Assembly (NCBI RefSeq): GCF_009931435.1
Contig: NZ_CP043414.1
Length of the DNA stretch: 64,000 bases
Direction: 5' to 3' (one strand)
Source: Escherichia coli
GTDB taxonomy: Bacteria > Pseudomonadota > Gammaproteobacteria > Enterobacterales > Enterobacteriaceae
Position numbers and translations under genes: made by a program. Positions within the stretch are counted from its first letter, which is position 1. Each line of letters starts with the position of its first letter. This document shows positions 30,676 through 31,859 of this stretch, piece by piece. Below the pieces are notes generated by a model, which worked only from the letters and a program-made list of their open reading frames with translations, had not been told where the DNA came from and did no database searches.

Positions 30676-30780
30676 GATGCCGGATGATTTGTAGGTCTGA
30701 TAAGACGCGCCAGCGTCGCATCAGACACCAGCACGGTGCCTATGCCGGATGCGGCGTGTACGCCTTATCCGGCATACATA
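30676..30780. repeat. REP/BIME cluster downstream of artM
   Basis: REP-type palindromic units, e.g. tgccggatgcggcgtgtacgccttatccggcataca and gtaggtctgataagacgcg...cgtcgcatcagaca. Confidence 0.7.
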
Positions 30781-30951
30781 GTGCATAGATTAATATAATA
30801 AAGACGGGCAACCCACTAAGTTGTCCGTCTTTTTTTATTCATTACGAATTATTTAATCATATTTATTGCATATAAATTCACTTAATGGCATTGTTATCTC
30901 ATGCCGCAGACACGGCCAAAAATCATAAGATTGACAGACGGGAGTTCCATC

Positions 30952-31683
30952 ATGAAAAAGTTAGTTCTTGCCGCTTTACTTTCATCCTGTGCATTCGGCG
31001 CTTCTGCGGCAGAGAAAATCAATTTCGGCGTATCAGCGACCTATCCTCCCTTTGAATCTATAGGTGCTAATAATGAGATTGTCGGCTTTGATATCGACCT
31101 GGCAAAAGCGTTATGCAAACAGATGCAGGCAGAATGTACTTTTACCAATCACGCTTTCGACAGCCTCATCCCGTCACTGAAATTCAGAAAATATGACGCC
31201 GTTATCTCCGGTATGGATATCACGCCGGAGCGTAGCAAGCAGGTATCATTTACCACGCCCTACTACGAAAACTCAGCTGTTGTGATTGCCAAAAAAGATA
31301 CCTACAAAACGTTTGCCGACCTGAAAGGCAAACGCATTGGGATGGAAAACGGTACAACGCACCAGAAATATATTCAGGATCAACACCCGGAAGTAAAAAC
31401 TGTCTCCTATGACAGTTATCAAAATGCCTTTATCGACCTGAAAAATGGTCGTATTGATGGGGTATTTGGTGACACAGCGGTGGTTAATGAATGGCTGAAA
31501 ACCAATCCACAACTGGGCGTTGCAACAGAGAAAGTAACCGACCCGCAGTACTTCGGCACCGGTCTGGGCATCGCTGTACGTCCGGATAATAAAGCCCTGC
31601 TGGAAAAACTGAATAACGCACTGGCAGCGATTAAAGCAGATGGTACGTATCAGAAAATCAATGACCAGTGGTTCCCGCAGTAA
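30952..31683 (+). CDS. artJ: arginine-binding periplasmic protein ArtJ
   Basis: 243-aa product from ATG 30952 (GGAG upstream), signal peptide MKKLVLAALLSSCAFGASA. Confidence 0.9.
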   Translation: MKKLVLAALLSSCAFGASAAEKINFGVSATYPPFESIGANNEIVGFDIDLAKALCKQMQAECTFTNHAFDSLIPSLKFRKYDAVISGMDITPERSKQVSFTTPYYENSAVVIAKKDTYKTFADLKGKRIGMENGTTHQKYIQDQHPEVKTVSYDSYQNAFIDLKNGRIDGVFGDTAVVNEWLKTNPQLGVATEKVTDPQYFGTGLGIAVRPDNKALLEKLNNALAAIKADGTYQKINDQWFPQ

Positions 31684-31709
31684 TCGGGACTGATGACAAA
31701 AGTAAGATT

Positions 31710-31810
31710 GCCTGATGCGCTACGCTTATCAGGCCTACATTTACCCTGCAATGCATTGATTTAGCACGATTTTGTAGGCCGAACAAGGCGCTCACGCCGC
31801 ATCCGACATG
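31710..31810. repeat. REP elements downstream of artJ
   Basis: gcctgatgcgctacgcttatcaggcctac and gtaggccgaacaaggcgctcacgccgcatccgacat REP-like units. Confidence 0.7.
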
Positions 31811-31837
31811 AACAACGCGCACCTTATCAGCAATCTG

Positions 31838-31859
31838 AAGCCGCAGCCGCGGCTTTTTT
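31838..31859 (+). terminator. hairpin terminator between artJ and convergent rlmC
   Basis: agccgc-agcc-gcggct stem followed by T6; overlaps the rlmC stop codon. Confidence 0.6.

Follow-up and report, generated by a model that had tools for sequence, protein, structure and literature searches.

REP and BIME elements on either side of artJ in a divergent Escherichia coli lineage

The artJ locus and its REP elements

The window, a 64-kb stretch of Escherichia coli DNA, carries artJ between the end of artP-artI-artQ-artM and the convergent gene rlmC (Table 1). An initial annotation had described the interval 30676-31859 as artJ bracketed by REP/BIME clusters. The interval is mostly the artJ gene itself, and both REP clusters are extragenic, in the intergenic regions on either side of it. 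The conserved artJ start is at 30952, and not at the earlier ATG, 30901, given in the open reading frame list. The source strain belongs to a rare, divergent E. coli lineage: its art locus is 93.7% identical to that of K-12 over 6.1 kb and 98.3% identical to that of strain 2017-02-2CC, and only 12 of 5,426 complete E. coli genomes match positions 30400-32000 with at least 99% identity. The rest of the window is 95-99% identical to nearly all E. coli.

Table 1. Genes, REP elements and predicted transcription signals around artJ (window positions)
Feature	Position	Strand	Description
artM stop codon	30659-30661	+	Last gene of artP-artI-artQ-artM
REP stump	30672-30686		15 nt; third REP, Y type, of which the left arm remains (TGCTGATGCCGGATG); same as 30737-30751, where the Y REP starts
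Z2-type REP	30690-30727	+	GTAGG first (30691-30695); in the artPIQM 3' UTR
Head-to-head linker	30728-30740		13 nt; spanned by the Rfam naRNA4 match
Y-type REP	30741-30778	-	Inverted relative to Z2
artPIQM intrinsic terminator, predicted	30800-30836	+	13-bp stem (30800-30832), 7-nt loop, T7 tract; from terminator scan
artJ promoter/operator block	~30840-30951		Conserved across genera
ARG box	30865-30882	+	ATTGCATATAAATTCACT; best ARG-box match in the window, 1 mismatch
artJ coding sequence	30952-31683	+	243 aa, arginine-binding protein
Z1-type REP	31709-31739	-	100% to consensus
L linker	31740-31772		33 nt
Y-type REP, decayed	31773-31809	+	GTAGG kept (31774-31778); three extra stem mismatches
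artJ/rlmC intrinsic terminator, bidirectional	31837-31859		Stem 31837-31856, T6 to 31859; overlaps the rlmC stop codon
rlmC	31858-32985	-	Convergent with artJ; stop codon 31858-31860

The REP core was scanned over the 64 kb as a 14-nt pattern (CTTATCMGGCCTAC) with at most two mismatches, and the expected number of matches was taken from shuffles. Four matches were found (30691, 30764, 31725 and 31774) against 0.36 expected, and the 36-nt Stern-type (classical) REP consensus matched at 30691-30726 against an expectation of 0.00. We also searched the 64 kb by blastn-short with the Y, Z1 and Z2 consensus sequences (after Bachellier and Ton-Hoang) as queries. These queries returned four REPs, all flanking artJ: a Z2 (30691-30724, 97%) and a Y (30743-30773, 93.5%) after artM, and a Z1 (31709-31738, 100%) and a second Y (31774-31805, 87.5%) after artJ. 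REPs are imperfect palindromes of 30-40 nt, and the tetranucleotide at their foot, GTAG or CTAC, is kept here in GTAGG at 30691 and 31774 and in CCTAC at 31734. Core, consensus, blastn-short and Rfam matches bear out the initial annotation in placing REPs after both artM and artJ. Of the limits it gave to the bracket, the start at 30676 falls within the REP stump, and the end at 31859 is the last T of a terminator, where there is no REP. Four palindromes and one stump make up the REP content of the 64 kb, with none elsewhere; weak REP-like blast matches at ~17.2 kb and ~36.3 kb lie inside coding sequence and are not REPs. REP/BIME elements at artJ are already known in the K-12 literature, where REP83a-b are catalogued with artJ (PMC10100675, Table 2), and REP features are absent from the RefSeq K-12 feature table.

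The cluster after artM begins with the stump, at the position of which a full REP is intact in E. albertii (L004) and in E. coli NU14 (L086). K-12 retains the opposite end of this upstream Y REP; the stump in the window and the opposite stump in K-12 are its remnants. The Z2 REP that follows starts 28 nt past the artM stop codon. Under the definitions of BIME-1 and BIME-2 in PMC3333891, the cluster can be assigned a BIME-2-type composition: a Z2 and an inverted Y REP lie head to head across a short linker, the pair is extragenic and in a 3' UTR, and its similarity to the REP325 unit model is full-length and above threshold. It departs from BIME-2 in being a single pair with a stump here rather than a tandem array, and in the foot of its Y REP (30741-30778), which in the window strain reads ATAC instead of CTAC, a single substitution at a place where K-12 has GGCCTAC. 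Across the 5,426 E. coli genomes, the BIME-2 element is found at a median of at least 8 places per genome. As RNA, the Z2 REP is predicted to form a hairpin of -19.8 kcal/mol (z -5.5) and the Y REP one of -25.0 kcal/mol (z -5.7), and strong structure is predicted for the full artM 3' UTR (z -6.5).

By the same kind of comparison, the element after artJ, which starts with its Z1 REP 25 nt past the artJ stop codon, is assigned a BIME-1/RIP-type composition. It shares with BIME-1/RIP (RIB) elements the Z1-L-Y order, an IHF consensus in the linker, occurrence as a single copy and a place between convergent genes. The predicted IHF site lies at 31749-31761 on the minus strand and is a perfect consensus, AATCAATGCATTG (matching WATCAANNNNTTR). 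Unlike in such elements, the Y REP of the window lineage forms no stable hairpin: its three extra stem mismatches mark it as a decayed copy, and it folds at -7.2 kcal/mol (z +0.3), compared with -20.9 kcal/mol for the K-12 orthologue. The Z1 REP hairpin reaches -13.2 kcal/mol (z -4.5), and the artJ 3' UTR in mRNA sense folds no better than shuffles (z -1.6). Z1, L and Y align together with a paralogous BIME-1 at torZ-cmoB, the homology stopping at the element edges, and the BIME-1 element has a median of at least 19 places per genome in the 5,426 E. coli genomes.

Both clusters are matched by Rfam families, the one after artM by naRNA4 (75.9 bits against a threshold of 59.5; 30694-30774) and the one after artJ by ES036 (38.8 against 37.6; 31731-31773). 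Scores above the Rfam gathering values could be read as independent sRNA genes, a naRNA4-like, HU-bound nucleoid RNA and the ES036 sRNA, but this is extremely improbable, because REP/BIME units underlie both models. The naRNA4 model represents a single Y-linker-Z2 unit of REP325 (PMC4550694), and a match is to be expected from every BIME of this kind. Furthermore, ES036 is just 1.2 bits over its threshold, the higher scores fall on the strand antisense to the art mRNAs, and a promoter scan gave no promoter-like site to accompany the matches. We rejected naRNA4 and ES036 as sRNAs here and regard the matches as family cross-matching. Matches to L20_leader, AbsR25 and gntR-DTE were far below their Rfam thresholds and were also set aside.

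Transcription boundaries of the artJ unit

The predicted artPIQM terminator, downstream of the REPs after artM, folds into a hairpin of -18.4 kcal/mol (z -7.3). We fetched 80 orthologous loci across Enterobacteriaceae for comparison, and artM-artJ adjacency is universal among the fetched loci. A hairpin with a T-run stands ~110-127 nt upstream of the artJ ATG in 76 of 82 loci, and when 33 distinct versions of this artM-artJ terminator are aligned, 6 of the 8 pairs in the stem vary in a compensatory way. The terminator-promoter block keeps a fixed distance from the artJ ATG, and most loci have no REP there. A sigma-70 scan found no plus-strand promoter for artJ; we infer the promoter here from the conservation of the block, from the ARG box and from the literature, which gives artJ a separate sigma-70 promoter that ArgR, and not Lrp, represses, and which puts PartP under both (PMC6640053).

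On the other side of artJ, the terminator shared with rlmC has a hairpin of -12.7 kcal/mol, and in genomes without the BIME this GCCGC..GCGGC-T hairpin is the entire 28-47-nt intergenic region. Term-seq of K-12 places a strong artJ-sense 3' end at 899644(-) (PMC7815308, supplementary file 1), a position that aligns to 31859 in the window, the last U of the terminator tract. Published 3'-end mapping thus puts the K-12 artJ end on the terminator and not on a REP. The artJ unit is delimited by the artPIQM terminator, the ArgR-operated promoter and the artJ/rlmC terminator. Judging by their distribution, the terminators and the artJ promoter, which are present without REPs, are older than the REPs.

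The initial annotation had proposed that the REPs insulate artJ, as a separately regulated unit, from artPIQM. This is not supported: the conserved terminator and the ARG-box promoter separate the two units, also in loci without REPs. A REP that serves as an operon boundary should have transcripts ending at it and a boundary that depends on it, and at artJ neither is found. It is likewise very unlikely that the REPs insulate or attenuate transcription in a wider sense, for example in a Rho-dependent way, and so stop or reduce transcripts that run on from artM into artJ, or past artJ into rlmC in antisense direction. The clusters are indeed located at both boundaries of the unit, and attenuation of transcription at BIMEs is on record (Espeli et al. 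2001, cited in PMC6061677). However, canonical intrinsic terminators lie immediately downstream of the clusters, and genera devoid of REPs conserve them too, with covariation. Strains and species carry between 0 and 4 REPs on an unchanged operon layout. Supplementary file 2 of PMC7815308 contains no Rho-termination region at artM, artJ or rlmC, and Adams et al. have neither a curated 3' end nor a Rho region between artM and artJ.

Variation of the clusters between and within species

The artM-artJ gap measures 280-295 nt and holds two REP cores in Escherichia, compared with 150-190 nt and none in most other genera. All of the extra sequence lies between the artM stop codon and a conserved TGCATAA-terminator block. 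In Salmonella arizonae and diarizonae, in the Citrobacter freundii group and in an Enterobacter, this slot is filled by REPs that are unrelated. Between artJ and rlmC, several Citrobacter, Enterobacter and Buttiauxella loci have a gap of 33-47 nt with the terminator alone, as against 165-198 nt where BIME-1 is present; cryptic-clade Escherichia have another gene after artJ, and BIME-1 is absent from them. Judged from these comparisons, both REP clusters are lineage-specific insertions in Escherichia. Their make-up after artM varies further within the genus, with Y-Z2 in E. albertii, four REPs together with a duplicated artM 3' end in one Escherichia species, and 2-4 REPs in other Escherichia. 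Every Escherichia locus examined has at least one REP after artM, and this constant retention could reflect weak selection.

Within E. coli, both clusters differ between strains, either in copy number or by being present or absent. BIME-1 is absent after artJ in 1,680 of the 5,426 complete genomes (~31%), which match an empty artJ-rlmC junction of 28 nt without interruption, and the K-12-type pair of Z2 and Y after artM is found in only 3,425 of them. About 2,000 genomes, NU14 among them, have a single Y REP after artM and a gap of 225 nt. Among the Escherichia loci compared, the number of REPs after artM is one in NU14, two in K-12 and four in L006.

The artJ-rlmC gap also differs in a 24-nt copy of the terminator arm, which directly follows the artJ stop codon in K-12-type genomes (at least 1,702) and is missing in the window, in E. 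albertii and in two other lineages. With this copy, the apparent target of BIME-1 stands on both sides of the element in K-12-type genomes, as diverged direct repeats. The duplicate may go back to the insertion itself or to a later rearrangement. Recombination between the direct repeats looks like the origin of the empty allele, an uninterrupted 28-nt junction in strain 4069 for example. There are three alleles in all: the empty one, BIME-1 with two diverged arm/loop copies of ~22-24 nt (K-12-type), and BIME-1 with the downstream copy only, which is carried by the window lineage and E. albertii. These alleles might record an insertion of BIME-1 targeted to the hairpin, with duplication of the target, and a later excision by recombination between the duplicates, but we consider this full sequence of events unlikely. 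If true, it would, with the independent insertions in Salmonella and Citrobacter at the equivalent place before the artM terminator, suggest that REP/BIME mobility is directed to sites close to terminators. The alleles form a natural series, with zero or one BIME-1 after artJ, one to four REPs after artM, and the terminator arm duplicated or not, and can serve as material for measuring the effect of REPs on mRNA stability beyond that of the terminator.

What the REPs may do at artJ

Both clusters are very probably ordinary members of the dispersed REP/BIME population, each placed between a stop codon and a pre-existing terminator. Because they lie upstream of the terminators, the REPs would be co-transcribed into the artPIQM and artJ 3' UTRs, and there 3'-to-5' exonucleases would meet the terminator hairpin first and the REP hairpins at most as a second obstacle behind it. 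At the DNA level, the BIME-2 may offer a gyrase site and the BIME-1 a site for IHF. Their presence would be due to the spread and turnover of the repeats, through the REP-associated transposase and REP-REP recombination, and not to selection for bracketing artJ. Beyond correct annotation the significance is small. The useful outcome is a negative one, in that the REPs flanking artJ would be dispensable, strain-variable passengers of the 3' UTRs and not regulatory insulators.

Stabilisation of the upstream mRNA, the other role initially suggested, is an established property of REPs (Newbury 1987, cited in PMC6061677) and by analogy is plausible for the art mRNAs. It may add to the half-life of the artPIQM mRNA in particular, since both intact REPs after artM (-19.8 and -25.0 kcal/mol) fold more stably than the terminator does (-18.4 kcal/mol). 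That the REPs have been selected as mRNA stabilisers is compatible with their being ordinary dispersed elements, and we hold it to be possible but rather doubtful. Three of the four REPs fold stably on the mRNA-sense strand (-13 to -25 kcal/mol), the z-score of -6.5 for the artM 3' UTR is consistent with such a role, and both REP stabilisation and REP-defined 3' ends have been documented for other genes (PMC6061677; PMC10100675). However, the terminator hairpin after each cluster already protects the 3' end, and it is to the terminator that the K-12 artJ 3' end maps. The artJ 3' UTR, with its z-score of -1.6 and one decayed REP, argues in the same direction, as do the 31% of E. coli that lack the artJ BIME-1 and the many that have one REP after artM.

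For such a role, a comparison can be made with the REP stabilisers at malE-malF and hisJ-hisQ, which resemble the art clusters as GC-rich REP hairpins in 3' UTRs of periplasmic-binding-protein/ABC-transporter operons. Their REP stands between co-transcribed genes and gives differential stability within one mRNA, whereas each art cluster precedes a terminator, and a separate promoter serves artJ. The art REPs also resemble ribosome-stalling REPs in lying downstream of stop codons. According to PMC12306157, ribosomes stall and translation drops when a REP follows the stop codon by no more than 15 nt; at 28 nt (artM) and 25 nt (artJ), the first intact REPs here are beyond that limit, and we rejected translational down-regulation.

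A role at the level of DNA, in which gyrase acts at the BIME-2 and IHF at the BIME-1, and the two elements form a topological buffer between artPIQM/artJ and rlmC, would fit the perfect IHF consensus in the L linker and the location of BIME-1 between convergent genes, where positive supercoils accumulate. IHF sites are frequent in the L linkers of BIME-1, and both gyrase and Pol I bind to REPs (PMC3333891). We nevertheless find it improbable that the elements serve such a function at this locus: the IHF 13-mer is present 11 times in the window, the orthologous L linker of K-12 has a mismatch in the core of the site, and BIME-1 is absent from the same 31% of E. coli and from cryptic-clade Escherichia.

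Four REPs around a single gene amount to mild clustering in 64 kb, in an arrangement that is not conserved. We roughly estimate the post hoc chance that two REP-bearing gaps among ~60 are adjacent at a few percent. K-12 has 355 annotated REP elements (PMC4550694), and by our arithmetic this number means that dozens of genes will be bracketed by REPs by chance.

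Empty sites and borders of BIME-1

In E. coli strain 4069 the stop codons of artJ and rlmC lie only 28 nt apart and the junction consists of one terminator hairpin alone, without BIME-1 (the Z1 REP-L linker-Y REP element found at this position in the window). Among 5,426 complete E. coli genomes, this empty-site junction is matched as a single piece by 1,680.

K-12-type E. coli carry a 24-nt copy of the arm and loop of the artJ/rlmC terminator (GATTCAGAAAGCCGCAACCGCGGC) directly 3' of the artJ stop, and at least 1,702 such genomes have it. Because this copy adjoins the artJ stop, BIME-1 in K-12-type genomes is bordered by diverged direct repeats. 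The copy is missing from the window (site 31683/31684), from E. albertii, and from loci L003 and L005. The two segments that immediately flank BIME-1 in the window resemble halves of an older Z-type REP, a similarity that would speculatively allow BIME-1 to be nested in a degraded element of that type.

Coordinates of features in the window and in compared loci
Feature	Sequence	Position	Strand	Remark
Empty artJ-rlmC site	strain 4069 (L085)	415-442		compared with window 31684-31857
24-nt terminator-arm copy	K-12 (L001)	2421-2444	-	
BIME-1 flank, artJ side	window	31689-31697		CTGATGAC
BIME-1 flank, rlmC side	window	31813-31830		GCGCACCTTATCAG
Single-Y-REP artM-artJ gap	E. coli NU14 (L086)	339-563		counterpart of window 30662-30951
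CRISPR-DR4 repeat	window	3259-3286	-	Rfam 50.1 bits, threshold 35
tRNA	window	3068-3152	+	next to the CRISPR-DR4 repeat
RybB small RNA gene	window	43448-43526	+	Rfam 104.8 bits

The artJ-rlmC interval in other lineages

In cryptic-clade Escherichia (L006, L007 and L008), BIME-1 is absent downstream of artJ and rlmC does not lie within 2.5 kb downstream; the next gene after artJ is another one, on the minus strand, and the GC-rich hairpin that separates it from artJ is also a different one. Citrobacter spp. (L019, L022 and L024) have an artJ-rlmC gap of ~155 nt with a ~125-nt non-REP insert, which seems to interrupt the conserved GCCGC..GCGGC terminator and could be a small mobile element of another kind.

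REP number after artM and the artJ start

In about 2,000 genomes of E. coli, a lone Y REP is present after artM, in a gap of 225 nt, instead of Z2 and Y. This allele looks like the recombination product of two Y REPs that formerly stood either side of Z2. The artM-artJ gap of Escherichia sp. MOD1-EC7003 (L006) is 423 nt and holds four REP cores, owing to a ~133-nt tandem duplication of the last ~40 nt of artM, a Y REP and part of a Z2 REP; the terminator T-tract is degraded in this species (TCTTTCCTC). A mechanical ORF list opens artJ at an in-frame upstream ATG (30901) that falls within the conserved promoter and 5' UTR. Position 30952 is the conserved start and yields the 243-aa protein.

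Source lineage and other features of the window

The window comes from an E. coli lineage that is both rare and divergent. Its identity to K-12 over artP-rlmC is 93.7%, nearly all E. coli match positions 45000-48000 at 95-99% identity, and the nearest complete genomes are 2017-02-2CC, R32_14_1F, 2013C-4282 and WL297. The single CRISPR-DR4 repeat has no array around it and looks like an orphan remnant of a type I-F CRISPR. The window also carries the gene for the small RNA RybB.
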